This document shows, piece by piece, positions 880-16,538 of a stretch of DNA of 16,969 bases. The notes under the pieces are model-generated. The model had not been told where the DNA came from, did not search any database, and worked only from the letters and a program-made list of their open reading frames with translations. A program made the translations under genes and the position numbers. How positions within the stretch are numbered: position 1 is the stretch's first letter; the number at the start of each line of letters is the position of its first letter. Source of the stretch: a virus (taxonomy: Duplodnaviria > Heunggongvirae > Uroviricota > Caudoviricetes); the IMG/VR virus record IMGVR_UViG_2663763054_000010. The stretch is one strand, 5' to 3'.

Positions 880-1090
880 AAACGGTTTGCGGGAAAAGGA
901 GAGTTAAGTAGAATTGCAGCGGGTGCTTGAGGCTATCTGTCTCAGGCATGAACACCAAAAGGCAGATAGAGAAAAGCCCCAGTTAACATTACGCGTCCGG
1001 CAAGACGCTTAACATTAATCTGAGGCTCAATCTATGAACGGCAAATCTAGGTTAGCCTCTTACGTGCCGAAAGGCAAGGAGAAGCAGGCT

Positions 1091-1246
1091 ATGAAGCAGC
1101 AAAAGGCGATGTTAATCGCCCTGATCGTCATCTGTTTAACCGTCATAGTGACGGCACTGGTAACGAGGAAAGACCTCTGCGAGGTACGAATTCGAACCGG
1201 CCAGACGGAGGTCGCTGTCTTCACAGCTTACGAACCTGAGGAGTAA
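1091..1246 (+). CDS. hokD: Hok/Gef-family type I toxin (51 aa), HokD/RelF-like
   Basis: MKQQKAMLIALIVICLTVIVTALVTRKDLCEVRIRTGQTEVAVFTAYEPEE matches Hok family architecture (TM helix + conserved C..R..G..EV.AF..YE); internal ATG of track ORF 1034-1246. Confidence 0.8.
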   Translation: MKQQKAMLIALIVICLTVIVTALVTRKDLCEVRIRTGQTEVAVFTAYEPEE

Positions 1247-1316: not shown

Positions 1317-1340
1317 CCCGCTTCGGCGGGTTTTTGTTTT
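1317..1340 (+). terminator. rho-independent terminator after hok (stem CCGC-UUCG-GCGG + T-tract)
   Basis: GC stem with UUCG tetraloop followed by TTTTTGTTTTT. Confidence 0.5.
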
Positions 1341-1466
1341 TATTTTCAACGCGTTTGAAGTTTTAGATGGTGCCGGAATAGAATCAAAAATACTTAAGTA
1401 GCGCGCAGGGAGAAGAGGGATGGACCCCGAACAGGGGAGTGCTATTTATCTGGAAGGATTCTGTTG

Positions 1467-1748
1467 ATGAAAATCGAAGAATTACGTGAAATTTTTAGTG
1501 AAGATGGCCTCTATACTGTGCGCGTTGAGAATGGCGCTATTGTCAGCCACTGCCTTCCAGACTACACAATTCTGATAATTCAGCCGTCTTTGCCAGCAGG
1601 CACGGGCGGCGCTCTCACGCATTTAAATCTGATTGGTACCAGCATCCCCCATGCACTGAAGAACAGGCCGAATGGCTCATTCAGTGTTACCGCAGGCGCG
1701 GATGCGAGGTTAAAAAAGCCCTTAGCCTCGACTACCGTCACTGGATAA
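1467..1748 (+). CDS. small prophage protein (93 aa); by position possibly Rem-like (recollection of Qin order hokD-rem-ydfU, not verified)
   Basis: ORF with ATG at 1467 (track starts at TTG 1464); identical copy at 7722-8003. Confidence 0.5.
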   Translation: MKIEELREIFSEDGLYTVRVENGAIVSHCLPDYTILIIQPSLPAGTGGALTHLNLIGTSIPHALKNRPNGSFSVTAGADARLKKPLASTTVTG

Positions 1749-1823
1749 TCTCCGTCAGGCTCCCTTACTCCGAACGGCCAACGCGTCCGTCCCGCACATT
1801 CCAGCAACGGATCTGGAGGTAAT

Positions 1824-2882
1824 GTGCGGGTATTACTTCGACCTGTTCTGGTACCGGAACTCGGTCTGGTTATCGTTAAGCCAGGCCGTGAATCAATGTC
1901 AGCATTCCATAACGGCAGAATACTGGTGGAGCCGGAACCAAAAAGCATGCGTAATCTGCCGTCCGGGGTCGTTCCTGCCGCTCGCCAGCCGCTGGTGGAA
2001 GACAAAACATTGCTGCCGTTTTTCAGTAACGCACGGGTGATTCGTGCTGCTGGTGGTGCTGGTGCATTGTCTGACTGGCTGTTGCGCCATATTAAATCCT
2101 GCCAGTGGCCACACGGCGATTATCATCACAGCGAAACCGTCATTCACCGTTATGGTACCGGCGCAATGGTGTTGTGCTGGCACTGCGACAACCAGCTGCG
2201 TGACCAGACATCCGAATCACTCGAGCAACTTGCTCATCAAAACCTGTCAGCATGGATGATTGACGTCATCGGTCACGCAATAAGCGGTACGCAGGAGCGT
2301 GAATTATCTCTGGCTGAATTATCCTGGTGGGCGGTCCGCAATCAGGTGGCGGACGCGCTACCGGAAGCGGTATTACGTCGTTCGCTGGGGTTGCGTGCGG
2401 AAAAAATTCGCTCTGTGTACAGTGAAAGCGACATCATACCGGGAGAGCAGACAGCCACCAGCATACTGAAGCAGCGCACAAAAAATATTGCGTTACTGCC
2501 TCACGTCCACCAGCAACAGAACCCACCACAGGAAAAGACGGTGGTCAGCATTGCCGTTGATCCGGAGTCACCGGCTCAGTATCTCCAGCGCCAGAAATCA
2601 CAACGGGAAGAGATGCCTGTATACACGCGCTGGGTAAAAACGCAGAAATGCATGACGTGTGGCAATCAGGCAGATGATCCGCATCACATCATTGGTCATG
2701 GACTGGGAGGGATGGGAACAAAGGCTGATGATTTGTTTGTTATTCCGTTATGCCGTAAATGCCGTAACGAACTACATGCCGGAGTAAAAGATTTTGAAGA
2801 GAAACACGGCAGTCAGCTGTTGTTGCTGATTCGTTTTTTAATGCACGCGAGAAATTCGGGTGTTCTGAAGTGGAAAGCATAA
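1824..2882 (+). CDS. YdfU-like (DUF968-type) prophage protein with C-terminal HNH-like zinc-finger nuclease motif
   Basis: GTG start 4 nt after GGAGG; C-terminus CMTCGNQADDPHHIIGHGLGG...PLCRKCRNELH (CxxC...HH...CxxC...H). Confidence 0.65.
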   Translation: MRVLLRPVLVPELGLVIVKPGRESMSAFHNGRILVEPEPKSMRNLPSGVVPAARQPLVEDKTLLPFFSNARVIRAAGGAGALSDWLLRHIKSCQWPHGDYHHSETVIHRYGTGAMVLCWHCDNQLRDQTSESLEQLAHQNLSAWMIDVIGHAISGTQERELSLAELSWWAVRNQVADALPEAVLRRSLGLRAEKIRSVYSESDIIPGEQTATSILKQRTKNIALLPHVHQQQNPPQEKTVVSIAVDPESPAQYLQRQKSQREEMPVYTRWVKTQKCMTCGNQADDPHHIIGHGLGGMGTKADDLFVIPLCRKCRNELHAGVKDFEEKHGSQLLLLIRFLMHARNSGVLKWKA

Positions 2883-3263
2883 ATGACCGAGCGCATAGAA
2901 TTTGTTTTACCTTACCCGCCGACGGTGAACACTTACTGGCGTCGTCGTGGCAGCACATATTTTGTATCAAAAGCCGGGGAGCGTTATCGCCGGGCAGTGG
3001 CGCTTATTGTTCGCCAGCAGCGGCTGAAATTAAGCCTGTCCGGAAGGTTGGCAATAAAAATTATTGCAGAACCACCGGATAAGCGCCGCCGTGACCTGGA
3101 CAATATTCTGAAAGCGCCGCTGGATGCGCTGACGCATGCGGGGTTGCTAATGGACGATGAGCAGTTTGATGAAATCAATATCGTTCGTGCTCAGCCAGTA
3201 TCTGGTGGACGTCTGGGGGTGAAGATTTATCCCATAATGCTTGAAGGGCAGGTCAAAAAATGA
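2883..3263 (+). CDS. rusA: RusA-family Holliday junction resolvase (variant a)
   Basis: ATG immediately after upstream TAA; RusA signature ...PPDKRRRDLDNILKAPLDALTHAGLLMDDEQ... Confidence 0.85.
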   Translation: MTERIEFVLPYPPTVNTYWRRRGSTYFVSKAGERYRRAVALIVRQQRLKLSLSGRLAIKIIAEPPDKRRRDLDNILKAPLDALTHAGLLMDDEQFDEINIVRAQPVSGGRLGVKIYPIMLEGQVKK

Positions 3264-4006
3264 AACTGGAAGATTTACCGAAATACTACTCCCCAAAATC
3301 CCCCGGCCTGACTGATGCATCGGCCTCAACGTCGAAAGATGCGCTGAGTATCACTGATGTGATGGCCGCGCAGGGCATGACACAGAATCGGGCTGAGATG
3401 GGGGTTTCTGCGTTCCTTGGGAAAATGGGCATTAGTATGAATGACAGAGAGCGGGCAACAGAATTGCTGACAGAATATGCACTCAGTCGGTGTGATCGCG
3501 TGGCGGCGTTAAGAAAACTCCCGGCAGAAATAAAACCGGCAGTGATGCGTATTATGGCTTCGTATGCGTTTGAAGATTATGCCCGTAGCGCGGCGAGCAA
3601 AAAACAGTGCCCCTGCTGTCACGGAAAAAAATTTATTGAAAGCGAGGTTTTTACAAACAAGATCCAGTATCCGGATGGTAAGCCGCCGGTATGGGCAAAG
3701 TGTACGAAAGGTGTGTATCCGTCTTACTGGGAAGAATGGAAAAAAGTCAGGGAGGTGGTAAAAGTTGCCTGTCCGGAGTGTGGCGGAAAGGGTGAGGTTT
3801 CCACCGCCTGTAAGGATTGCCGTGGGCGTGGTGTCGCCATTCATCGTGAAGAGTCGGTAAAACGTGGTATGCCTGTTATCAGAGACTGCCAGCGTTGTGG
3901 TGGTCGTGGCTATGAAAGACTACCATCAACGGAGGCATTTAATGCTATATGCGAGGTGACAAACCAGATAACACGCGCGTCATGGGAAAAAACAGTTAAG
4001 AAATTA
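3260..4006 (+). pseudogene. Q-like late antiterminator (variant a), 3' end replaced by IS2 after codon ~249; track ORF 3260-4093 has an IS-derived tail
   Basis: Identical to 9515-10261 then diverges at the IS2 terminus TGGATTTGCCCC (4007). Confidence 0.7.
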
Positions 4007-4017
4007 TGGATTTGCCC

Positions 4018-4923
4018 CTATATTTCCAGACATCTGTTATCACTTAACCCATTACAAGCCCGCTGCCGCAGATATTCCCGTGGCGAGCGATAACCCAGCG
4101 CACTATGCGGATGCCATTCGTTATAATGCTCGAACGCCTCTGCAAGGTTCTTTGCTGCCGTTAACCCGTCTGGTTTGGGCATGATACTGATGTAGTCACG
4201 CTTTATCGTTTTCACGAAGCTCTCTGCTATTCCGTTACTCTCCGGACTCCGCACCGCCGTGTTCTTCGGTTCAAGTCCCAACATCCGGGCGAACTGGCGT
4301 GTTTCATTAGCCCGGTAGCATGAACCATTATCCGTCAGCCACTCCACTGGAGACGACGGAAGATCGTTGCCGAAGCGGCGTTCCACCGCTCCCAGCATGA
4401 CGTCCTGTACTGTTTCACTGTTGAAGCCGCCGGTAGTCACCGCCCAGTGCAGTGCCTCACGATCACAGCAGTCCAGCGCGAACGTGACACGCAGTCTCTC
4501 TCCGTTATCACAGCAGAACTCGAACCCGTCAGAGCACCATCGCTGATTGCTTTCTTTCACGGCCACTCTGCCTGTATGTGCCCGTTTCGATGGCGGTACA
4601 GCAGGTTTTCGCTCAAGCAACAGCGCATTCTGGCGCATGATCCGGTAAACACGTTTGGCATTGATCGCAGGCATACCATCAAGTTCTGCCTGTCTGCGAA
4701 GCAGCGCCCATACCCGACGATAACCATACGTGGGCAGCTCTCCGATAACATGGTGTATACGGAGAAGCACATCCGTATCATCAGTGTGACGACTGCGGCG
4801 GCCATCCATCCAGTCATCGGTTCGTCTGAGAATGACGTGCAACTGCGCACGCGACACCCGGAGACAACGGCTGACTAAGCTTACTCCCCATCCCCGGGCA
4901 ATAAGGGCGCGTGCGCTATCCAC
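4018..4923 (-). CDS. insD: IS2 transposase OrfB (InsD), 301 aa
   Basis: Protein [34 protein letters not shown]... matches recalled IS2 InsD. Confidence 0.9.
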
Positions 4924-5246
4924 TTTTTTGCCCGTCCATATTCAACGGCTTCTTTGAGGAGTTCATTTTCCATCGTTTTCTTGCCGAGCAGGCGCTGGAG
5001 TTCTTTAATCTGCTTCATGGCGGCAGCAAGTTCAGAGGCAGGAACAACCTGTTCTCCGGCGGCGACAGCAGTAAGACTTCCTTCCTGGTATTGCTTACGC
5101 CAGAGAAATAACTGGCTGGCTGCTACACCATGTTGCCGGGCAACGAGGGAGACCGTCATCCCCGGTTCAAAGCTCTGCTGAACAATTGCGATCTTTTCCT
5201 GTGTGGTACGCCGTCTGCGTTTCTCCGGCCCTAAGACATCAATCAT
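4881..5246 (-). CDS. insC: IS2 OrfA (InsC), 121 aa
   Basis: [24 protein letters not shown]... from internal ATG of track ORF 4881-5291. Confidence 0.85.
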
Positions 5247-5472
5247 CTGTACTCCAATGACTAGTCTAAAAACTAGTATTAAGACTATCACTTATTTAAG
5301 TGATACTGGTTGTCTGGAGATTCAGGGGGCCAGTCTACGGACATTTTCTGCCTGTGGACCAGGAAAGTGCACGGGTGCTTTCCACTCCCATGAAGCCCGG
5401 CAATCCGCGCAGATACAGTAATAAACGAACTGACAGCAGTAAGATGGAGCGTTTCTTTTGAACAACCAGACA

Positions 5473-5715: not shown

Positions 5716-6089
5716 TGCGCCATGAGTTTATTTTACCTTATCCGCCGACGGTGAATACTTACTGGCGACGTCGTGACAACACATATTTTGTATCAAAAGC
5801 CGGTGAGCGTTATCGCCGGGATGTGGCGCTTATTGTCCGTCAGCAGCGACTGAAATTAAGCCTGTCCGGAAGACTGGCGATAAAGATTATTGCAGAGCCA
5901 CCGGATAAGCGCCGTCGTGACCTGGACAATATCCTGAAAGCACCACTGGATGCACTGACACATGCGGGAGTGTTAATGGACGATGAGCAGTTTGATGAAA
6001 TCAATATCGTTCGTGCTCAGCCAGTATCTGGTGGACGTCTGGGGGTGAAGATTTACCCCATAATGCATGAAGAGCAGGTCAAAAAATGA
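5715..6089 (+). CDS. rusA: RusA-family Holliday junction resolvase (variant b)
   Basis: 124 aa, same signature as 2883-3263 but divergent N-terminus (MRHEFILPYPP). Confidence 0.85.
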   Translation: MRHEFILPYPPTVNTYWRRRDNTYFVSKAGERYRRDVALIVRQQRLKLSLSGRLAIKIIAEPPDKRRRDLDNILKAPLDALTHAGVLMDDEQFDEINIVRAQPVSGGRLGVKIYPIMHEEQVKK

Positions 6090-6907
6090 AACTGGAAGAT
6101 TTACCGAAATACTACTCCCCAAAATCCCCTTGCCTGACCGATGCATCGGCCTCAACGTCAAAAGATGCGCTGAGTATCACTGATGTGATGGCCGCGCAGG
6201 GCATGACACAGAATCGGGCTGAGATGGGGTTTTCTGCGTTCCTGGGGAAAATGGGCATCAGTATGAATGACAGGGCGCGGGCAACAGAATTACTGGCAGA
6301 TTATGCACTCAGTCGGTGCGATCGTGTGGCGGCGTTGAGAAAACTTCCGGCAGAAATAAAACCGGTAGTGATGCGCATTATGGCTTCGTACGCTTTTGAG
6401 GATTATGCCCGCAGCGCAGCGAGTAAAAAGCAGTGCCCTTGTTGCTATGGGGAAAAATTTATTGAAAGCGTAGTTTTTACAAACAAGGTCCAGTATCCGG
6501 ATGGTAAGCCGCCGGTATGGGCAAAGTGTACGAAAGGTGTGTATCCGTCTTACTGGGAAGAATGGAAAAAAGTCAGGGAGGTGGTAAAAGTTGCCTGTCC
6601 GGAGTGTGGCGGAAAGGGTGAGGTTTCCACCGCCTGTAAGGATTGCCGTGGGCGTGGTGTCGCCATTCATCGTGAAGAGTCGGTAAAACGTGGTATGCCT
6701 GTTATCAGAGACTGCCAGCGTTGTGGTGGTCGTGGCTATGAAAGACTACCATCAACGGAGGCATTTAATGCTATATGCGAGGTGACAAACCAGATAACAC
6801 GCGCGTCATGGGAAAAAACAGTTAAGAAATTTTATGATGCGCTGGTGACCCGGTTTGATATTGAAGAAGCATGGGCTGAGCGGCAGTTAAAAAAGGTAAC
6901 TAGGTAA
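6086..6907 (+). CDS. Q-like late antiterminator (variant b), 273 aa with CxxC zinc-finger repeats
   Basis: ATGA overlap with rusA; CPCC..CPECGGKG..CKDCRGRG..CQRCGGRG motifs; followed by promoter + short terminator (PR'/tR' layout). Confidence 0.65.
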   Translation: MKLEDLPKYYSPKSPCLTDASASTSKDALSITDVMAAQGMTQNRAEMGFSAFLGKMGISMNDRARATELLADYALSRCDRVAALRKLPAEIKPVVMRIMASYAFEDYARSAASKKQCPCCYGEKFIESVVFTNKVQYPDGKPPVWAKCTKGVYPSYWEEWKKVREVVKVACPECGGKGEVSTACKDCRGRGVAIHREESVKRGMPVIRDCQRCGGRGYERLPSTEAFNAICEVTNQITRASWEKTVKKFYDALVTRFDIEEAWAERQLKKVTR

Positions 6908-6912
6908 CAAGG

Positions 6913-6940
6913 TTGATTTTTCCGGAATCTGTGGTAAATT
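6913..6940 (+). promoter_or_regulatory. candidate late promoter PR' (TTGATT-16 nt-TAAATT) just downstream of Q
   Basis: sigma70-like hexamers; position matches lambdoid Q/qut/PR' organisation; copies at 10342-10369 and 14901-14928. Confidence 0.35.
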
Positions 6941-6989
6941 CGTCATAACGATGGGCGTTTTATGCCTGACGTTAGAAGAGTTTCTACAA

Positions 6990-7012
6990 CCCGCCGCCGA
7001 GCGGGTTTTTTA
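6990..7012 (+). terminator. tR'-like rho-independent terminator (CCCGC-loop-GCGGG + T6)
   Basis: GC-rich hairpin plus TTTTTT about 45-60 nt downstream of the candidate PR'. Confidence 0.6.
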
Positions 7013-7131
7013 TGACTGAAATCGCGTCAGTACAGTAAACGCGCTGGTGGCGGTGAATACCTGTCTTTCAGCTTGCTGGCTTTTTCGACAAGAGTTATTG
7101 GTGTGTCACGTTAACCGGAAAAGGAAAAGAC

Positions 7132-7585: not shown

Positions 7586-7721
7586 ATTTTGTTTTTATTT
7601 TCAACGCGTTTGAAGTTTTAGATGGTGCCGGAATAGAATCAAAAATACTTAAGTAGCGCGCAGGGAGAAGAGGGATGGACCCCGAACAGGGGAGTGCTAT
7701 TTATCTGGAAGGATTCTGTTG

Positions 7722-8003
7722 ATGAAAATCGAAGAATTACGTGAAATTTTTAGTGAAGATGGCCTCTATACTGTGCGCGTTGAGAATGGCGCTATTGTCA
7801 GCCACTGCCTTCCAGACTACACAATTCTGATAATTCAGCCGTCTTTGCCAGCAGGCACGGGCGGCGCTCTCACGCATTTAAATCTGATTGGTACCAGCAT
7901 CCCCCATGCACTGAAGAACAGGCCGAATGGCTCATTCAGTGTTACCGCAGGCGCGGATGCGAGGTTAAAAAAGCCCTTAGCCTCGACTACCGTCACTGGA
8001 TAA
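7722..8003 (+). CDS. small prophage protein, copy of 1467-1748
   Basis: Identical protein. Confidence 0.5.
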   Translation: MKIEELREIFSEDGLYTVRVENGAIVSHCLPDYTILIIQPSLPAGTGGALTHLNLIGTSIPHALKNRPNGSFSVTAGADARLKKPLASTTVTG

Positions 8004-8078
8004 TCTCCGTCAGGCTCCCTTACTCCGAACGGCCAACGCGTCCGTCCCGCACATTCCAGCAACGGATCTGGAGGTAAT

Positions 8079-9137
8079 GTGCGGGTATTACTTCGACCTG
8101 TTCTGGTACCGGAACTCGGTCTGGTTATCGTTAAGCCAGGCCGTGAATCAATGTCAGCATTCCATAACGGCAGAATACTGGTGGAGCCGGAACCAAAAAG
8201 CATGCGTAATCTGCCGTCCGGGGTCGTTCCTGCCGCTCGCCAGCCGCTGGTGGAAGACAAAACATTGCTGCCGTTTTTCAGTAACGCACGGGTGATTCGT
8301 GCTGCTGGTGGTGCTGGTGCATTGTCTGACTGGCTGTTGCGCCATATTAAATCCTGCCAGTGGCCACACGGCGATTATCATCACAGCGAAACCGTCATTC
8401 ACCGTTATGGTACCGGCGCAATGGTGTTGTGCTGGCACTGCGACAACCAGCTGCGTGACCAGACATCCGAATCACTCGAGCAACTTGCTCATCAAAACCT
8501 GTCAGCATGGATGATTGACGTCATCGGTCACGCAATAAGCGGTACGCAGGAGCGTGAATTATCTCTGGCTGAATTATCCTGGTGGGCGGTCCGCAATCAG
8601 GTGGCGGACGCGCTACCGGAAGCGGTATTACGTCGTTCGCTGGGGTTGCGTGCGGAAAAAATTCGCTCTGTGTACAGTGAAAGCGACATCATACCGGGAG
8701 AGCAGACAGCCACCAGCATACTGAAGCAGCGCACAAAAAATATTGCGTTACTGCCTCACGTCCACCAGCAACAGAACCCACCACAGGAAAAGACGGTGGT
8801 CAGCATTGCCGTTGATCCGGAGTCACCGGCTCAGTATCTCCAGCGCCAGAAATCACAACGGGAAGAGATGCCTGTATACACGCGCTGGGTAAAAACGCAG
8901 AAATGCATGACGTGTGGCAATCAGGCAGATGATCCGCATCACATCATTGGTCATGGACTGGGAGGGATGGGAACAAAGGCTGATGATTTGTTTGTTATTC
9001 CGTTATGCCGTAAATGCCGTAACGAACTACATGCCGGAGTAAAAGATTTTGAAGAGAAACACGGCAGTCAGCTGTTGTTGCTGATTCGTTTTTTAATGCA
9101 CGCGAGAAATTCGGGTGTTCTGAAGTGGAAAGCATAA
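8079..9137 (+). CDS. YdfU-like protein with HNH-like motif, copy of 1824-2882
   Basis: Identical protein. Confidence 0.65.
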   Translation: MRVLLRPVLVPELGLVIVKPGRESMSAFHNGRILVEPEPKSMRNLPSGVVPAARQPLVEDKTLLPFFSNARVIRAAGGAGALSDWLLRHIKSCQWPHGDYHHSETVIHRYGTGAMVLCWHCDNQLRDQTSESLEQLAHQNLSAWMIDVIGHAISGTQERELSLAELSWWAVRNQVADALPEAVLRRSLGLRAEKIRSVYSESDIIPGEQTATSILKQRTKNIALLPHVHQQQNPPQEKTVVSIAVDPESPAQYLQRQKSQREEMPVYTRWVKTQKCMTCGNQADDPHHIIGHGLGGMGTKADDLFVIPLCRKCRNELHAGVKDFEEKHGSQLLLLIRFLMHARNSGVLKWKA

Positions 9138-9518
9138 ATGACCGAGCGCATAGAATTTGTTTTACCTTACCCGCCGACGGTGAACACTTACTGGCGTCGT
9201 CGTGGCAGCACATATTTTGTATCAAAAGCCGGGGAGCGTTATCGCCGGGCAGTGGCGCTTATTGTTCGCCAGCAGCGGCTGAAATTAAGCCTGTCCGGAA
9301 GGTTGGCAATAAAAATTATTGCAGAACCACCGGATAAGCGCCGCCGTGACCTGGACAATATTCTGAAAGCGCCGCTGGATGCGCTGACGCATGCGGGGTT
9401 GCTAATGGACGATGAGCAGTTTGATGAAATCAATATCGTTCGTGCTCAGCCAGTATCTGGTGGACGTCTGGGGGTGAAGATTTATCCCATAATGCTTGAA
9501 GGGCAGGTCAAAAAATGA
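9138..9518 (+). CDS. rusA: RusA-family resolvase (variant a), second copy
   Basis: Identical to 2883-3263. Confidence 0.85.
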   Translation: MTERIEFVLPYPPTVNTYWRRRGSTYFVSKAGERYRRAVALIVRQQRLKLSLSGRLAIKIIAEPPDKRRRDLDNILKAPLDALTHAGLLMDDEQFDEINIVRAQPVSGGRLGVKIYPIMLEGQVKK

Positions 9519-10336
9519 AACTGGAAGATTTACCGAAATACTACTCCCCAAAATCCCCCGGCCTGACTGATGCATCGGCCTCAACGTCGAAAGATGCGCT
9601 GAGTATCACTGATGTGATGGCCGCGCAGGGCATGACACAGAATCGGGCTGAGATGGGGGTTTCTGCGTTCCTTGGGAAAATGGGCATTAGTATGAATGAC
9701 AGAGAGCGGGCAACAGAATTGCTGACAGAATATGCACTCAGTCGGTGTGATCGCGTGGCGGCGTTAAGAAAACTCCCGGCAGAAATAAAACCGGCAGTGA
9801 TGCGTATTATGGCTTCGTATGCGTTTGAAGATTATGCCCGTAGCGCGGCGAGCAAAAAACAGTGCCCCTGCTGTCACGGAAAAAAATTTATTGAAAGCGA
9901 GGTTTTTACAAACAAGATCCAGTATCCGGATGGTAAGCCGCCGGTATGGGCAAAGTGTACGAAAGGTGTGTATCCGTCTTACTGGGAAGAATGGAAAAAA
10001 GTCAGGGAGGTGGTAAAAGTTGCCTGTCCGGAGTGTGGCGGAAAGGGTGAGGTTTCCACCGCCTGTAAGGATTGCCGTGGGCGTGGTGTCGCCATTCATC
10101 GTGAAGAGTCGGTAAAACGTGGTATGCCTGTTATCAGAGACTGCCAGCGTTGTGGTGGTCGTGGCTATGAAAGACTACCATCAACGGAGGCATTTAATGC
10201 TATATGCGAGGTGACAAACCAGATAACACGCGCGTCATGGGAAAAAACAGTTAAGAAATTTTATGATGCGCTGGTGACCCGGTTTGATATTGAAGAAGCA
10301 TGGGCTGAGCGGCAGTTAAAAAAGGTAACTAGGTAA
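9515..10336 (+). CDS. Q-like late antiterminator (variant a), intact 273 aa
   Basis: Same as 3260-4006 then continues with the native C-terminus ...KKFYDALVTRFDIEEAWAERQLKKVTR. Confidence 0.65.
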   Translation: MKLEDLPKYYSPKSPGLTDASASTSKDALSITDVMAAQGMTQNRAEMGVSAFLGKMGISMNDRERATELLTEYALSRCDRVAALRKLPAEIKPAVMRIMASYAFEDYARSAASKKQCPCCHGKKFIESEVFTNKIQYPDGKPPVWAKCTKGVYPSYWEEWKKVREVVKVACPECGGKGEVSTACKDCRGRGVAIHREESVKRGMPVIRDCQRCGGRGYERLPSTEAFNAICEVTNQITRASWEKTVKKFYDALVTRFDIEEAWAERQLKKVTR

Positions 10337-10418
10337 CAAGGTTGATTTTTCCGGAATCTGTGGTAAATTCGTCATAACGATGGGCGTTTTATGCCTGACG
10401 TTAGAAGAGTTTCTACAA

Positions 10419-10441
10419 CCCGCCGCCGAGCGGGTTTTTTA
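10419..10441 (+). terminator. tR'-like terminator (copy of 6990-7012)
   Basis: Same hairpin + T-tract. Confidence 0.6.
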
Positions 10442-10560
10442 TGACTGAAATCGCGTCAGTACAGTAAACGCGCTGGTGGCGGTGAATACCTGTCTTTCAG
10501 CTTGCTGGCTTTTTCGACAAGAGTTATTGGTGTGTCACGTTAACCGGAAAAGGAAAAGAC

Positions 10561-10908: not shown

Positions 10909-11967
10909 ATGCTTAATACTGTAAAAATATCCAGTTGTGAGTTAATCAACGCCGACTGCCTGGAATTTATCCGGTCGTTACCCGAAAATTCTGTTGACCT
11001 GATAGTCACGGACCCGCCGTACTTTAAAGTGAAGCCTGAGGGCTGGGATAACCAGTGGAAGGGCGACGATGATTACCTGAAGTGGCTGGACCAGTGTCTG
11101 GCGCAGTTCTGGCGGGTGCTGAAACCTGCCGGAAGTCTTTACCTGTTCTGTGGTCATCGCCTGGCATCTGATATCGAAATCATGATGCGTGAACGCTTCA
11201 GTGTGCTGAACCATATTATCTGGGCGAAGCCGTCCGGACGCTGGAACGGATGCAACAAGGAAAGCCTGCGGGCGTATTTCCCCGCCACAGAGCGCATTCT
11301 GTTCGCGGAACATTATCAGGGGCCGTATCGTCCGAAAGATGCCGGGTATGCGGCGAAGGGCAGTGCACTGAAACAGCATGTGATGGCCCCGCTGATTTCT
11401 TACTTTCGTGATGCGCGAGCTGCCCTGGGGATAACGGCAAAACAGATTGCAGATGCCACAGGAAAGAAAAACATGGTGTCGCACTGGTTCAGTGCCGGTC
11501 AGTGGCAGTTGCCGAATGAAAGCGATTATCTGAAATTACAGGCGCTGTTTGCCCGGGTGGCAGAAGAGAAGCATCGGCGTGGTGAACTGGAAAAGCTCCA
11601 CCACCAGCTGGTGGATACGTATACCTCACTGAACCGGCAGTATGCGGAGCTGCTGAGTGAATATAAACATCTGCGGCGGTATTTTGGCGTGACGGTGCAG
11701 GTGCCGTATACCGATGTGTGGACGCATAAACCGGTGCAGTTCTATCCCGGGAAACATCCGTGCGAAAAACCGGCAGAAATGCTGCAGCAGATAATCAGCG
11801 CTAGCAGTCGTCCGGGTGACCTGATTGCAGATTTTTTCATGGGGTTGGGTTCGACAGTGAAAGCGGCACTGGCGCTCGGGCGTCGTGCAATTGGCGTTGA
11901 GCTGGAGACTGAACGTTTTGAGCAGACGGTTCGGGAAGTACAGGATTTAGTCAGCCAGAACGGATGA
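10909..11967 (+). CDS. DNA methyltransferase, DPPY (N6-adenine/N4-cytosine) type with beta-class motif order; no cognate endonuclease seen (orphan)
   Basis: Motif IV DLIVTDPPYF near N-terminus, motif I DLIADFFMGLGST near C-terminus. Confidence 0.8.
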   Translation: MLNTVKISSCELINADCLEFIRSLPENSVDLIVTDPPYFKVKPEGWDNQWKGDDDYLKWLDQCLAQFWRVLKPAGSLYLFCGHRLASDIEIMMRERFSVLNHIIWAKPSGRWNGCNKESLRAYFPATERILFAEHYQGPYRPKDAGYAAKGSALKQHVMAPLISYFRDARAALGITAKQIADATGKKNMVSHWFSAGQWQLPNESDYLKLQALFARVAEEKHRRGELEKLHHQLVDTYTSLNRQYAELLSEYKHLRRYFGVTVQVPYTDVWTHKPVQFYPGKHPCEKPAEMLQQIISASSRPGDLIADFFMGLGSTVKAALALGRRAIGVELETERFEQTVREVQDLVSQNG

Positions 11968-12007: not shown

Positions 12008-12083
12008 GGCCCTTTAGCTCAGTGGTGAGAGCGAGCGACTCATAATCGCCAGGTCGCTGGTTCAAATCCAGCAAGGGCCACCA
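12008..12083 (+). tRNA. tRNA with CAU anticodon, tRNA-Ile2 (lysidine) type, ileX/ileZ-like
   Basis: Cloverleaf: acceptor GGCCCTT/AAGGGCC, anticodon loop CTCATAA, T-loop TTCAAAT, CCA end. Confidence 0.85.
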
Positions 12084-12090
12084 TCACATA

Positions 12091-12167
12091 CCGCCATTAG
12101 CTCATCAGGAAAGAGCGCCAGCCTTCGAAGCTGGCTGCGCGGGGTTCAAGTCCCCGATGGCGGTCCA
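12091..12167 (+). tRNA. tRNA-Arg, anticodon UCG as read
   Basis: Acceptor CCGCCAT/ATGGCGG, anticodon stem CCAGC/GCTGG with loop CTTCGAA, T-loop TTCAAGT, CCA end. Confidence 0.75.
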
Positions 12168-12180
12168 TTATCTGCATCAT

Positions 12181-12257
12181 GCGTTGTTAGCTCAGCCGGA
12201 CAGAGCAATTGCCTTCTAAGCAATCGGTCACTGGTTCGAATCCAGTACAACGCGCCA
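12181..12257 (+). tRNA. tRNA-Arg, anticodon UCU (reads rare AGA)
   Basis: Acceptor GCGTTGT/ACAACGC, anticodon loop CTTCTAA, T-loop TTCGAAT, CCA end. Confidence 0.85.
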
Positions 12258-12300: not shown

Positions 12301-12514
12301 TGTCTCACAATTCAGACGGTTGACAGTTGTCTGTTTTGCGGGGAGTTTGTTAAAAGAAACTGGCATGGTGAATCCCCCTGTGCGGAGGGGCAATCAGCGA
12401 GTAGGTATATGGGATAATCGCGGATTCAGGTGCTGGTACTGAATTCACCGGGAGGCACCCGGCATCATGCAATGGCACATAGCGCCACTCTCCAGCCCTC
12501 TCCGGAGGGGCTTT
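12293..12514 (+). other. conserved ~215-bp structured non-coding element, copy 1; candidate sRNA or leader ending in a hairpin
   Basis: Near-identical to 15947-16170; several GC stems; no ORF conserved between copies. Confidence 0.3.
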
Positions 12515-12744
12515 TCTGTGCCGGATACATCACAGTTTCTGGAACCTTAGGTACTACAGTATCAGTCAGGGTGCTATATTTTCAGATGTGATGAAAGCCT
12601 GTCAGCAGGCAGGGCGTATCGGAAATGACCCAGTAGAGAAAACGTTGACTCAGATACCGGTGCTGAGTTACCGGGAAACCGGCATCACATGACCGCTATC
12701 CTGAGGTGTACTGGCAATAGCGGACACTACCATTTGTTCTTTTT

Positions 12745-13563
12745 TTAAGCAGCCATCTGATGATATTTTTCCCTGAAGGCTGCCGGGGAGATATTCCCCA
12801 GACGAGAGTGACGACGCTGACGATTGTAGAAAATCTCAATGTATTCCCGTATTACTGAGATGGCTTCATCCCGGTTATTAAAACGATAGTGGCTCAGGCT
12901 CTCATTTTTCAGCGTTCCCCAGAAGCTTTCCATCGGAGCGTTGTCGTAACAGTTACCTTTACGCGACATTGATGTTTTCAGACCAGACTGCTCCTGTATG
13001 ACCCGGTAATCGTATGCGCAGTACTGTGAACCTCGATCAGAGTGGTGGATTAGCCCGGCAGGTGGGCGCTGGCTCCTGAGCGCCATAAACAGGGCTTTAC
13101 CTGTCAGCTCTTTTGTCATGCGCTCTCCCATGGCGTAGCCGACAATTTCGCACGTATAAACATCTTTGATGCCAGCGAGGTACAACCATCCCTCCTGTGT
13201 GGCAACATACGTCAGGTCCGCCACCCAGACCTGATTTGGTGCTGTAGGAGCGAACGTCTGGTTCAGCAGATTTGGCGCAACTGGCAGATTGTGGTTCGAG
13301 TTCGTAGTCGCTCTGAACTTGCGTTTCTGCTTACAGCGTAGCCTTAGCTCCTTACGAAGACGTGCCAGTCGGTCACGACCAACGATGATGCCATTCTCTG
13401 CCAGCTCCGTCTGGAGCCGCCGGGTTCCATATGTTTCGCGAGTGCGGATATGTGCCACCTTAATCTCCAGTTTTAGCCGCTCATCACTTTGTTTTCTGTC
13501 TGAGGGTTCATGCTGTACCCAGTTGTAATAACCGCTCCTGGATACACCAAATACCTGACACAT
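12745..13563 (-). CDS. IS3-family transposase OrfB (DDE integrase-like), 272 aa from first in-frame Met
   Basis: Recalled IS3-family OrfB features; normally expressed as an OrfAB frameshift fusion. Confidence 0.85.
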   Translation of the reverse strand: MCQVFGVSRSGYYNWVQHEPSDRKQSDERLKLEIKVAHIRTRETYGTRRLQTELAENGIIVGRDRLARLRKELRLRCKQKRKFRATTNSNHNLPVAPNLLNQTFAPTAPNQVWVADLTYVATQEGWLYLAGIKDVYTCEIVGYAMGERMTKELTGKALFMALRSQRPPAGLIHHSDRGSQYCAYDYRVIQEQSGLKTSMSRKGNCYDNAPMESFWGTLKNESLSHYRFNNRDEAISVIREYIEIFYNRQRRHSRLGNISPAAFREKYHQMAA

Positions 13564-13598
13564 CGCTTCAATGGGAAATTGTTGTCGCCATTGTTCGA

Positions 13599-13842
13599 TT
13601 AACGCGTATTTTTCAGCGACTCCTGTGCAAAATACGCTGTTGCTTTTTTTAATATATCTCGCTCAAGGCGAGCTTCATTTAACGCCTTACGCAGTTGCAG
13701 AATTTCAGATTCCAGTTCAGCCACCGTGCGGGAACCAGGAGTACCGAGCCCTTTTCTGGCGGCGGTAACCCATTGTCCTAAAGTGCCTTCAGGAAGAGAT
13801 AATCGGGAAGCGCCTTCACTGATCGAAAGTTGATTTTCAAAG
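13599..13842 (-). pseudogene. IS3-family OrfA, C-terminal part only (...ENQLSISEGASRLSLPEG...ILKKATAYFAQESLKNTR)
   Basis: Track ORF 13599-14000 is chimeric: 3' part is orfA, 5' part is antisense rusA. Confidence 0.7.
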
Positions 13843-14084
13843 CGACTGAAATTAAGCCTGTCCGGAAGACTGGCGATAAAGATTATTGCAGAGCCACCGG
13901 ATAAGCGCCGTCGTGACCTGGACAATATCCTGAAAGCACCACTGGATGCACTGACACATGCGGGAGTGTTAATGGACGATGAGCAGTTTGATGAAATCAA
14001 TATCGTTCGTGGTCAGCCAGTATCTGGTGGACGTCTGGGGGTGAAGATTTACCCCATAATGCATGAAGAGCAGGTCAAAAAATG
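13843..14084 (+). pseudogene. rusA: rusA (variant b) 3' fragment, lacking about the first 44 codons
   Basis: Matches 5848-6089 with one substitution (RAQPV to RGQPV); upstream replaced by the IS. Confidence 0.8.
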
Positions 14085-14936
14085 AAACTGGAAGATTTAC
14101 CGAAATACTACTCCCCAAAATCCCCTTGCCTGACCGATGCATCGGCCTCAACGTCAAAAGATGCGCTGAGTATCACTGATGTGATGGCCGCGCAGGGCAT
14201 GACACAGAATCGGGCTGAGATGGGGTTTTCTGCGTTCCTGGGGAAAATGGGCATCAGTATGAATGACAGGGCGCGGGCAACAGAATTACTGGCAGATTAT
14301 GCACTCAGTCGGTGCGATCGTGTGGCGGCGTTGAGAAAACTTCCGGCAGAAATAAAACCGGTAGTGATGCGCATTATGGCTTCGTACGCTTTTGAGGATT
14401 ATGCCCGCAGCGCAGCGAGTAAAAAGCAGTGCCCTTGTTGCTATGGGGAAAAATTTATTGAAAGCGTAGTTTTTACAAACAAGGTCCAGTATCCGGATGG
14501 TAAGCCGCCGGTATGGGCAAAGTGTACGAAAGGTGTGTATCCGTCTTACTGGGAAGAATGGAAAAAAGTCAGGGAGGTGGTAAAAGTTGCCTGTCCGGAG
14601 TGTGGCGGAAAGGGTGAGGTTTCCACCGCCTGTAAGGATTGCCGTGGGCGTGGTGTCGCCATTCATCGTGAAGAGTCGGTAAAACGTGGTATGCCTGTTA
14701 TCAGAGACTGCCAGCGTTGTGGTGGTCGTGGCTATGAAAGACTACCATCAACGGAGGCATTTAATGCTATATGCGAGGTGACAAACCAGATAACACGCGC
14801 GTCATGGGAAAAAACAGTTAAGAAATTCTATGATGCGCTGGTGACTCGGTTTGATATTGAAGAAGCATGGGCTGAGCGGCAGTTAAAAAAGGTAACTAGG
14901 TTGATTTTTCCGGAATCTGTGGTAAATTCGTCATAA
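14082..14936 (+). CDS. Q-like late antiterminator (variant b), 284 aa; an 8-bp deletion removes the normal stop and adds an 11-aa tail
   Basis: Same as 6086-6907 apart from a few substitutions; ...AGGTAACTAGGTAACAAGGTTG becomes AGGTAACTAGGTTG; ORF runs through the PR' -35/-10. Confidence 0.6.
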   Translation: MKLEDLPKYYSPKSPCLTDASASTSKDALSITDVMAAQGMTQNRAEMGFSAFLGKMGISMNDRARATELLADYALSRCDRVAALRKLPAEIKPVVMRIMASYAFEDYARSAASKKQCPCCYGEKFIESVVFTNKVQYPDGKPPVWAKCTKGVYPSYWEEWKKVREVVKVACPECGGKGEVSTACKDCRGRGVAIHREESVKRGMPVIRDCQRCGGRGYERLPSTEAFNAICEVTNQITRASWEKTVKKFYDALVTRFDIEEAWAERQLKKVTRLIFPESVVNSS

Positions 14937-14977
14937 CTATGGGCGTTTTATGCCTGACGTTAGAAGAGTTTCTACAA

Positions 14978-15000
14978 CCCGCCGCCGAGCGGGTTTTTTA
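14978..15000 (+). terminator. tR'-like terminator (third copy)
   Basis: CCCGC-loop-GCGGG + T6. Confidence 0.6.
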
Positions 15001-15038
15001 TTGCGGAATTAATTACGGACCGTTATTATTCTGCTCCC

Positions 15039-15114
15039 GGCCCTTTAGCTCAGTGGTGAGAGCGAGCGACTCATAATCGCCAGGTCGCTGGTTCAAATCC
15101 AGCAAGGGCCACCA
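15039..15114 (+). tRNA. tRNA (CAU), Ile2-type, second copy
   Basis: Identical to 12008-12083. Confidence 0.85.
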
Positions 15115-15121
15115 TCACAAA

Positions 15122-15201
15122 CCGCCATTAGCTTATCAGGAAGAGCAGACGACACGATAACAGGGTTGTTGGTGCGGGGGCGGGTCCCCGATGGCGGTCC
15201 A
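15122..15201 (+). pseudogene. degenerate tRNA (tRNA-Arg-like ends, anticodon arm and T-loop disrupted)
   Basis: Acceptor and D-arm as in 12091-12167, but the middle has no anticodon stem and the T-loop is GCGGGT. Confidence 0.55.
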
Positions 15202-15214
15202 TTATCGGTATTCA

Positions 15215-15291
15215 GCGTTGTTAGCTCAGCCGGACAGAGCAATTGCCTTCTAAGCAATCGGTCACTGGTTCGAATCCAGTACAGCGCGCCA
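15215..15291 (+). tRNA. tRNA-Arg (UCU), second copy, with one acceptor-stem change giving a U-G pair
   Basis: Same as 12181-12257 except ACAGCGC for ACAACGC. Confidence 0.8.
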
Positions 15292-15946: not shown

Positions 15947-16170
15947 TTTTTAAATACTTCACAATTCAGGCGGTTGACTGTTGTCTGGTTTGCGGGGAGT
16001 TTGTTAAAAGAAACTGGCATGGTGAATCCCCCTGTGCGGAGGGGCAATCAGCGAGTAGGTATATGGGATAATCGCGGATTCAGGTGCTGGTACTGAATTC
16101 ACCGGGAGGCACCCGGCACCATGCAATGGCACATAGCGCCACTCTCCAGCCCCTCTCCGGAGGGGCTGTT
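15947..16170 (+). other. conserved structured non-coding element, copy 2
   Basis: Aligns to 12293-12514 with scattered substitutions; ends in perfect hairpin AGCCCCTC-TCCG-GAGGGGCT. Confidence 0.3.
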
Positions 16171-16202
16171 TATATTGATTTTGTCAGATGTGAGTAAACT
16201 CC

Positions 16203-16538
16203 TTATGGACTTTGTTGTTTTAGTCCATAAGGACATATTTGCAGAGTGCAACGGTTATTAAAGCATTCATTCAATACGTTATCTGTATTTGTAGGGCATT
16301 CCTGGCTATTTTTGATTGAATTCCAGAATGTTTTATTGAATGGTACTACGTTGTAAATGGTTACAGGTAGCACTTTGTTATTGAGCATGATGCCTGTGTG
16401 AGTCAGTGTAAATATACTTTCAGGAGGTAAGAAAGCATCCGATTGATACCAGATTATTAATTTTATTTTACTCCATATGACTGAAAAAGATATTCCGCAT
16501 GATGGCTGGATAACTGTATCAATCACAATCCACTTCAT
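16203..16538 (-). CDS. hypothetical protein (111 aa) in AT-rich region
   Basis: ORF only; 3' end coincides with a perfect inverted repeat (about 16202-16232). Confidence 0.25.

Follow-up and report, generated by a model that had tools for sequence, protein, structure and literature searches.

A tRNA-derived element without an anticodon arm, probably a relic allele, in the middle slot of a lambdoid phage tRNA cluster

The viral sequence IMGVR_UViG_2663763054_000010 (16,969 nt, analyzed over its full length and referred to below as the window) contains two tRNA gene clusters, and in the second of them the space between two tRNA genes, at 15122-15201, is filled by an element, here called type A, that resembles a tRNA at its ends and not in its center. 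The question raised by this locus is what such an element is. The original prediction had offered two answers, namely the decay of a redundant cluster or a tRNA-derived element with another role, and both are weighed here together with other potential explanations. The features on which the argument draws are collected in Table 1.

Table 1. Features of the window and of two comparison loci, with position, strand and basis.
Feature	Position	Strand	Basis or remark
hok/sok-type antitoxin RNA	921-1096		Near left end of window; Rfam sok, 112.4 bits
Q gene, first copy	3260-4093		Truncated by IS2
IS2	4018-5291	minus	
Q gene, second copy	6086-6907		
119-nt unit	6902-7020		
Q gene, third copy	9515-10336		
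119-nt unit	10331-10449		
DNA methylase gene	10909-11967		
Cluster 1 tRNA-Ile2 (CAU)	12008-12083	+	ARAGORN, Rfam, alignment
Cluster 1 tRNA-Arg (UCG), argN	12091-12167	+	ARAGORN; Rfam 58 bits; working middle gene
Cluster 1 tRNA-Arg (UCU)	12181-12257	+	ARAGORN, Rfam, alignment
STnc100 sRNA, second copy	12334-12523	+	After cluster 1; Rfam RF02076, 123.6 bits
IS3-family element	12745-14000	minus	Annotated IS600-like in nearest genome
Q antiterminator gene, fourth copy	14082-14936	+	Directly 5' of cluster 2; Pfam Antiterm PF03589, E 7e-55
119-nt unit	14890-15008		Contains promoter-like motif
Putative late promoter (PR'-like)	14901-14928	+	By eye; TTGATT-16 nt-TGgTAAATT (extended -10)
Intrinsic terminator (tR'-like)	14976-15001 (also given as 14976-14995)	+	Terminator scan; between promoter and tRNAs
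Cluster 2 tRNA-Ile2 (CAU), ileZ type	15039-15114	+	ARAGORN; Rfam 72.5 bits; identical to 12008-12083
Degenerate tRNA-like element, type A	15122-15201	+	argN homology, fold, population data; no ARAGORN or Rfam call
Type A acceptor stem	15122-15128 with 15191-15197	+	CCGCCAU/AUGGCGG
Type A D arm	15131-15146	+	GCUU AUCAGGAA GAGC
Type A third-arm hairpin	15155-15171	+	ViennaRNA fold
Type A T-like hairpin	15175-15190	+	Fold; 6-nt loop GCGGGU
Type A U73	15198	+	
Type A CCA	15199-15201	+	
Cluster 2 tRNA-Arg (UCU), argO type	15215-15291	+	ARAGORN; Rfam 68.0 bits; 15284 G, giving U4.G69
STnc100-family prophage sRNA	15988-16177	+	3' of cluster 2; Rfam RF02076, 132.4 bits
iraM-like gene	16203-16538	minus	
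Type B element (phiP27 allele)	L002 3006-3086		
Type C tRNA-like element, 81 nt	L001 2508-2588 = E. coli K-12 NZ_CP032667.1 3536888-3536968	minus	yahL-yahM intergenic

ARAGORN called five tRNAs in the window, and Rfam RF00005 scored the four outer genes of the two clusters at 68-72.5 bits and argN, the middle gene of cluster 1, at 58 bits. Alignment confirmed that the Ile2 tRNA is identical in both clusters (the same CAU gene is labelled tRNA-Ile by PGAP in records L002 and L136) and that the third tRNAs differ, as had been noticed, by one change only, 15284 A>G, which turns the acceptor pair U4-A69 into U4.G69 and lowers the Rfam score of argO from 70.1 to 68.0 bits. This G.U pair had been read as a sign of decay; however, among the matches listed, position 15284 was G in 38, A in 13 and C in 1 of the 52 haplotypes linked to a type A middle element. 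Since the variant is the majority allele and costs only 2 bits, it is a common allele that represents ordinary polymorphism.

Type A retains a considerable part of a tRNA, including a 7-bp acceptor stem, the discriminator, the 3' CCA and a D arm with A14, G18-G19 and A21. In the cluster alignment its 5' end (CCGCCATTAGCT.ATCAGGAA) and its 3' end (GTCCCCGATGGCGGTCCA) are common to argN, and the two genes are identical over the last 18 nt, made up of the 3' strands of T stem and acceptor together with U73 and CCA. The 21-nt scaffold motif of the 5' end occurs at exactly two sites in the window, compared to 0.01 expected by chance, and a motif search of the whole window found no further scaffold copies. 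The differences from argN begin in the D arm, where C13 is replaced by U (giving a G.U pair) and the D loop is 1 nt shorter, and they are most pronounced in the central ~28 nt, which are unrelated to argN in the alignment, and in the T loop, which is reduced to the 6 nt GCGGGU. There is neither an anticodon stem of 5 bp closed by a 7-nt loop (with U33, an anticodon and a purine at 37) nor a 7-nt T loop with U54-U55-C56 and A58. The alignment therefore agrees with the earlier description of retained acceptor and D arms, a replaced anticodon arm and a GCGGGT T loop, but the center is not the unpaired sequence it was said to be: ViennaRNA folds type A as a four-arm cloverleaf whose third arm is a predicted 7-bp hairpin (CGAUAAC/GUUGUUG) with a 3-nt loop, and an alternative fold of the center has a 5-bp stem, ACGAC/GUUGU, with an 11-nt loop. 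The predicted fold is not better than that of shuffled sequences (z of -1.29, compared to -2.85 for argN).

At 15122-15201, no tRNA was called by ARAGORN at default settings, at 80% thresholds or with introns allowed, and RF00005 had no match at the gathering threshold (29 bits), nor at E<=10 in a 321-nt search. Lenient Rfam searches of the window stretch, K-12 and L002 assigned no family to any element with the odd third arm. YrlA was considered as a family for type A and rejected, as its 16.2 bits (gathering threshold 69) came mostly from ileZ and represent noise. Lacking an anticodon stem-loop (and with it C35) as well as U54-U55-C56 and A58, type A should neither be charged by ArgRS nor decode. 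The view that it derives from a tRNA and cannot be a normal one is supported.

The setting of cluster 2 is that of a lambdoid late operon. The cluster starts 38 nt 3' of the terminator that ends a Q promoter-terminator module and lies 5' of late genes, and its order, Ile2(CAU), middle gene, Arg(UCU), with 7-13 nt between the genes, is that of the Stx/lambdoid ileZ-argN-argO cluster, which likewise stands behind Q and a terminator. The acceptor stem, D arm, U73 and CCA of the middle gene are also the same; the difference is that the middle gene is a working tRNA-Arg(UCG) in cluster 1 of the window but not in cluster 2, where the anticodon arm is missing, the T loop is 6 nt long and none of the detectors makes a call. 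The Stx phage layout of Q, methylase, tRNA genes and stx has been drawn previously (PMC3491183), three tRNAs, two Arg and one "Met", have been reported (PMC7946995), and the gene names ileZ, argN and argO appear in the annotation of Stx2a_WGPS8. The terminator has a 7-bp stem (AACCCGC/GCGGGTT, from 14976 onward) followed by TTTTATTG. The putative promoter, which was not called in a consensus scan (8/12 matches), is contained in the last copy of a 119-nt unit that is repeated behind three Q copies. Given the Q promoter-terminator module 38 nt upstream, cluster 2 would presumably be made as one precursor by Q-modified RNA polymerase, and its three genes most likely belong to a single late transcript from which they would be processed.

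The middle slot of this cluster is occupied by a family of variants that combine one scaffold (acceptor stem, D arm, U73 and CCA) with differing centers: Arg(UCG) in cluster 1 of the window and in PhiR49_2, Lys(UUU) in phage Evi and the PPompW phages, and the odd center of the elements discussed here. The anticodon arms seen on this scaffold (L133 1507-1582, L134 1507-1583, L135 1508-1584 and window 12091-12167) vary in a manner that suggests cassette-like exchange of the anticodon arm. The data show the middle slot to be a swap site (Arg-UCG, Lys-UUU, odd arm), which bears on phage tuning or protection of translation.

Three elements have the odd center. Type C, which is chromosomal and located between yahL and yahM, has an extra GACG compared to the Lys type, a third arm of 7 bp (ACGACAA/UUGUUGU) with a 6-nt loop, CCAGGA, and a canonical T loop, UUCGAGG. 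In type B, the phiP27 allele, there is a further insertion of 5 nt, ACGAU, and the third-arm loop is shorter, while the T loop is again canonical. Type A has the center of type B together with C13>U and a ruined T loop, and the 3' half of its T arm (CGGGUCCCCGA) is that of the commonest argN allele. Types A and B share the scaffold and the odd center AGACGACACGATAACAGGGTTGTTGGTG (~92% identity over 90 nt), but type B keeps a canonical T arm (CGGGG UUCGAGU CCUCG) and C13 and is called by ARAGORN at relaxed thresholds only; the phiP27 records leave the middle element unannotated. Types A and C share the first 32 nt, the acceptor stem, U73 and CCA (~80% identity over 87 nt), and their third arms are related (CGAUAA/UUGUUG in type A, CGACAA/UUGUUG in type C). 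Type C differs in its canonical T loop, its third-arm loop, its own promoter-like motif and its invariance across Escherichia species.

Constraint on type A in populations was assessed from 52 haplotypes found in 112 IMG/VR loci among the matches listed, of which 45 remained after removal of truncated or rearranged copies. In these 45 haplotypes, again among the matches listed, variable sites numbered 6 of 76 in ileZ (all singletons), 11 of 77 in argO, 15 of 82 in the middle element (9 non-singleton) and 8 of 20 in the spacers. Twenty-six nucleotides of the middle element were fixed by the search pattern and were left out of the comparison, after which 14 of 56 sites were variable, compared to 17 of 153 in the flanking tRNAs (p=0.016); for non-singleton sites the figures were 9 of 56 and 5 of 153 (p=0.0026), both tests being confined to the matches listed and counting as independent haplotypes that share ancestry. 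Variability of the middle element did not differ significantly from that of the spacers among the same matches.

The nature of the variation is also informative. Among the matches listed, type A alleles break the acceptor pairs 1:72 (5 loci), 5:68 (3 loci) and 4:69, and G35C breaks a third-arm pair in 21 loci; positions 33 and 35 are the variable sites of the center. The G run varies (G5, G6 and G9), with changes in T-loop length through slippage, and no genuine compensatory change in type A was found among the haplotypes examined, while argO in the same loci shows a compensatory C-G to G-C swap in its T stem. Some type A copies are cut, ending after GTTGTTG (L032, L044 and L064), others are damaged by a cut in the T arm (L108) or a deletion (L019), and the copy in AR0374 has decayed further, with G9 and two acceptor mismatches. 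The population data thus support relaxed constraint on type A compared to its functional neighbors, bearing in mind that the haplotypes share ancestry. It is also important to note that genuine argN is variable as well (11 of 78 sites) and often imperfect, so that the contrast between argN and type A, which had been expected to be strong, is weak, and the whole middle slot seems loosely constrained.

Two kinds of junction were observed in these loci. L032, L044 and L064 have a common breakpoint right after GTTGTTG, followed by unrelated DNA (CTTTCCCGTTGCTG...), and this may be a recurrent recombination junction. An identical foreign sequence (ATAAGCGCTAACT...) splits the T arm after GTCCC in both type A (L108) and argN(UCG) (L071), which suggests site-specific insertion into the T arm; this junction sequence is absent from the window. 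In addition, the commonest argN(UCG) allele in phage contigs (65/119, at loci such as L138, L139 and L140) has an A.C mismatch in the T stem, an A6xA67 mismatch in the acceptor and the T loop UUCGGGU, and 18 of its 65 copies end in UCA and not CCA, so that even a "good" argN may be impaired.

The explanation that we consider probable is that the element at 15122-15201 is a relic, a non-decoding allele that occupies the middle ("argN") slot of a lambdoid late-operon ileZ-X-argO cluster and is carried as a passenger. The outer genes, ileZ and argO, would be intact tRNAs under selection, and type A, which keeps the acceptor stem, the D arm, a G/C-rich T-like hairpin, U73 and CCA, would descend from an older odd-arm lineage represented by type B, with the same center and a normal T loop. 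The T loop would then have been lost at the slippage-prone G run, and the allele would spread through mosaic phages as an 80-nt passenger with a selected gene on either side. RNase P cleavage and 3' trimming may still be possible at the acceptor/T minihelix that remains, with the neighboring tRNAs maturing normally. This reading follows from the lack of a detector call, the GCGGGU loop and the missing 7-nt anticodon loop; from variability greater than that of the flanking tRNAs, with pair-breaking alleles and G-run changes that are not compensated; from the existence of truncated and deleted copies; from the graded series running from the Arg(UCG)/Lys(UUU) scaffold through types C and B to type A; and from the loose constraint on the middle slot in general.

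Like tRNA pseudogenes, type A combines homology to a working tRNA with the loss of essential elements and excess variation that includes pair-breaking changes. Unlike them, it is unusually widespread and often identical, because it is carried inside a 253-nt module with two selected ends. Several observations nevertheless count against a relic: the allele is very common and often identical (at least 99% identity in 1,025 genome records) and is found in complete phages, its predicted fold retains the four arms of a cloverleaf and the CCA, the strongly conserved type C shares the odd third arm, and the polymorphism sample is modest, with non-independent haplotypes and a similarly variable argN. 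If the relic reading is correct, type A taken alone is a dead tRNA gene that stays in circulation, flanked by two useful tRNAs, within a module passed as one block among mosaic phages, and an ordinary object in itself, that is, a tRNA-derived relic in a known phage tRNA cluster. It would also account for the many E. coli prophages in which annotation pipelines list two tRNAs instead of three.

The chromosomal relative behaves very differently from type A. Type C is identical at 81/81 positions in E. albertii, E. whittamii, E. sp. E1V33 and E. ruysiae, species in which its 150-nt upstream leader is only 79-84% identical and the DNA just after the CCA is variable or deleted. It is also identical in 113 of 118 metagenome copies, and the five variants have only changes in the CCA or a T-stem G.U to G-C replacement. 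A promoter-like motif (TTGACA-16-CATAAT) is conserved ~100 nt 5' of the element, the hairpins of the leader are conserved with a few compensatory changes, and the annotated yahM start codon lies inside the 3' acceptor strand. Type C has no Rfam match, the PGAP record examined for K-12 annotates no RNA there, and the metagenome scan returned the chromosomal element only, with no more distant relatives. Two papers mention yahL/yahM with no word of an RNA there (PMC12132413 and PMC5493296), and literature searches on the ileZ/argN/argO cluster, a tRNA-like yahM element and the element sequences found nothing relevant. Judged from sequence comparison, purifying selection on type C is evidently very strong; the promoter-like motif and leader that it has for itself, together with invariance across the Escherichia species sampled in an element that is unannotated in K-12, point to a functional RNA gene, and it looks like a selected, putative tRNA-like RNA gene. 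With no description of it found in the searchable literature, type C is a lead of more interest than type A.

It is possible, though we hold it to be doubtful, that type A itself is a functional, non-decoding tRNA-like RNA, freed by RNase P from the late transcript and acting via its third arm. Potential roles include a regulator, a decoy for a tRNA-targeting enzyme or a processing signal for its neighbors, and the element would then be the phage counterpart of the yahL-yahM element. Functional tRNA-like RNAs include tRNA-Other of Bacillus cereus and the Y-RNA-like modules of YrlA, and phage tRNAs can counter tRNA-cleaving defenses. Type A is like them in having a tRNA shape without decoding, and its slot can be taken by tRNAs that nucleases typically target, Lys(UUU) or Arg(UCG); it differs in having no sequence or structure match to them, no identified partner gene and no evidence of constraint on the allele. 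Consistent with a function are the cloverleaf-like fold with U73 and CCA retained, the prevalence of the allele and its presence in complete phages, and the fact that the variable positions 33 and 35 would sit in the loop of the alternative stem ACGAC/GUUGU. The strongest argument comes from type C: a third arm related to that of type A is invariant in four Escherichia species despite the diverged leader, and in metagenomes the element is nearly always identical and accompanied by its conserved promoter-like motif. Since the odd third arm is common to this perfectly conserved element, the arm is not random sequence.

However, the functional reading encounters several difficulties at the phage locus. 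The T-loop signature still present in types B and C is missing from type A, which has G-run slippage, acceptor-breaking alleles, truncations and no covariation; it is more variable than the flanking tRNAs, its fold energy is not better than that of shuffled sequences, and it matches no curated family (YrlA, tmRNA or others). The excess conservation expected of a functional RNA is strong in type C, which is a different locus, and is not seen in type A, nor is covariation. Two exact-match scans found neither type C nor further odd variants in phage contigs, so a function of type C need not transfer to the phage alleles, and its conservation supports type C itself and not a function of those alleles. 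The second of the original suggestions, a tRNA-derived element with another role, thus gains some support from the conserved chromosomal relative, but this support does not extend to the allele in the window.

A broader version of this idea, more speculative still, is that type A is an allele of an undescribed family of non-decoding tRNA-like RNAs, defined by the argN/Lys-type scaffold together with a third arm that is not canonical, its stem being CGAYAA/UUGUUG and its loop short and inclusive of CAGG. The phage alleles would then be not dead tRNAs but mobile copies still acting via this arm, for instance as mimics of the chromosomal RNA or by interference with it. If the functional reading were true, the best-studied bacterium would have a new small RNA gene, and relatives of that gene carried by phages would be expressed in lytic growth.

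The first of the original suggestions, that cluster 2 is a redundant duplicate of cluster 1 whose middle gene degenerated under its cover, is improbable and already largely refuted. It takes its appeal from the presence of two clusters 3 kb apart in the window, a pairing that is also found in L078 and L071; these, however, are the only 2 of ~120 IMG/VR loci in which the fetched stretches contained both type A and argN(UCG), and ~118/120 loci had no argN(UCG) pattern in the fetched stretch (among the matches listed). Among complete E. coli genome records, 1,025 have the 100 nt around type A at an identity of >=99%, 570 at 95-99% and 196 at 90-95%, and five phage records match at 100%, including the complete phage mEp460_ev081; an IMG/VR scan yielded at least 120 loci. 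In mEp460_ev081 the identical allele stands behind DUF968-RusA-Q and ahead of the lysis genes, in what is the sole cluster of the 6.5-kb stretch examined. Moreover, type A differs from argN by block replacement with indels and not by scattered point changes. The two clusters of the window lie behind different Q modules (with a methylase or none) and have an IS3-family element between them, which indicates that alleles of different phage lineages have been united here and that the clusters are not a duplicate pair. On these comparisons, the type A allele is old and widespread and in all probability did not decay inside the window, and it is mostly unannotated in well over a thousand public genomes.

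It is very unlikely that type A is a working decoder with an odd anticodon arm, such as an expanded loop, a four-base anticodon or a small intron. The idea derives from type B, which relaxed ARAGORN reads as tRNA-???(aaca), or as Cys(aca) with a 4-nt intron, and which PGAP labels tRNA-OTHER; the intron and four-base-anticodon readings were rejected, as ARAGORN gives them for type B only, at relaxed settings, and never calls type A at any setting. The absence of U54-U55-C56 and A58 from the T loop and the variation at the supposed anticodon-arm positions of type A also argue against decoding, and to our knowledge the removal of such small introns is not known in bacteria.

That type A is a sequencing or assembly artefact is scarcely credible. 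The window does have four Q copies and no collinear match in complete E. coli genomes, but the 100-nt stretch recurs in the independent genome and phage records described above, which refute an artefact for the element itself. The window, which also has DUF968 and RusA genes and for which no collinear complete E. coli genome was found, is a series of stacked late-regulatory modules from lambdoid prophages, and its layout resembles one scrambled by IS elements, of the kind found in Shigella-like genomes. Positions 1332-4005 are repeated at 7587-10260, with 100% identity where compared (1332-1631 and 1555-3465). Other observations within the window include the two STnc100 copies, for which a preprint on Pas sRNAs provides context for that family only, the hok/sok-type RNA near its left end, and the iraM-like gene on the minus strand.
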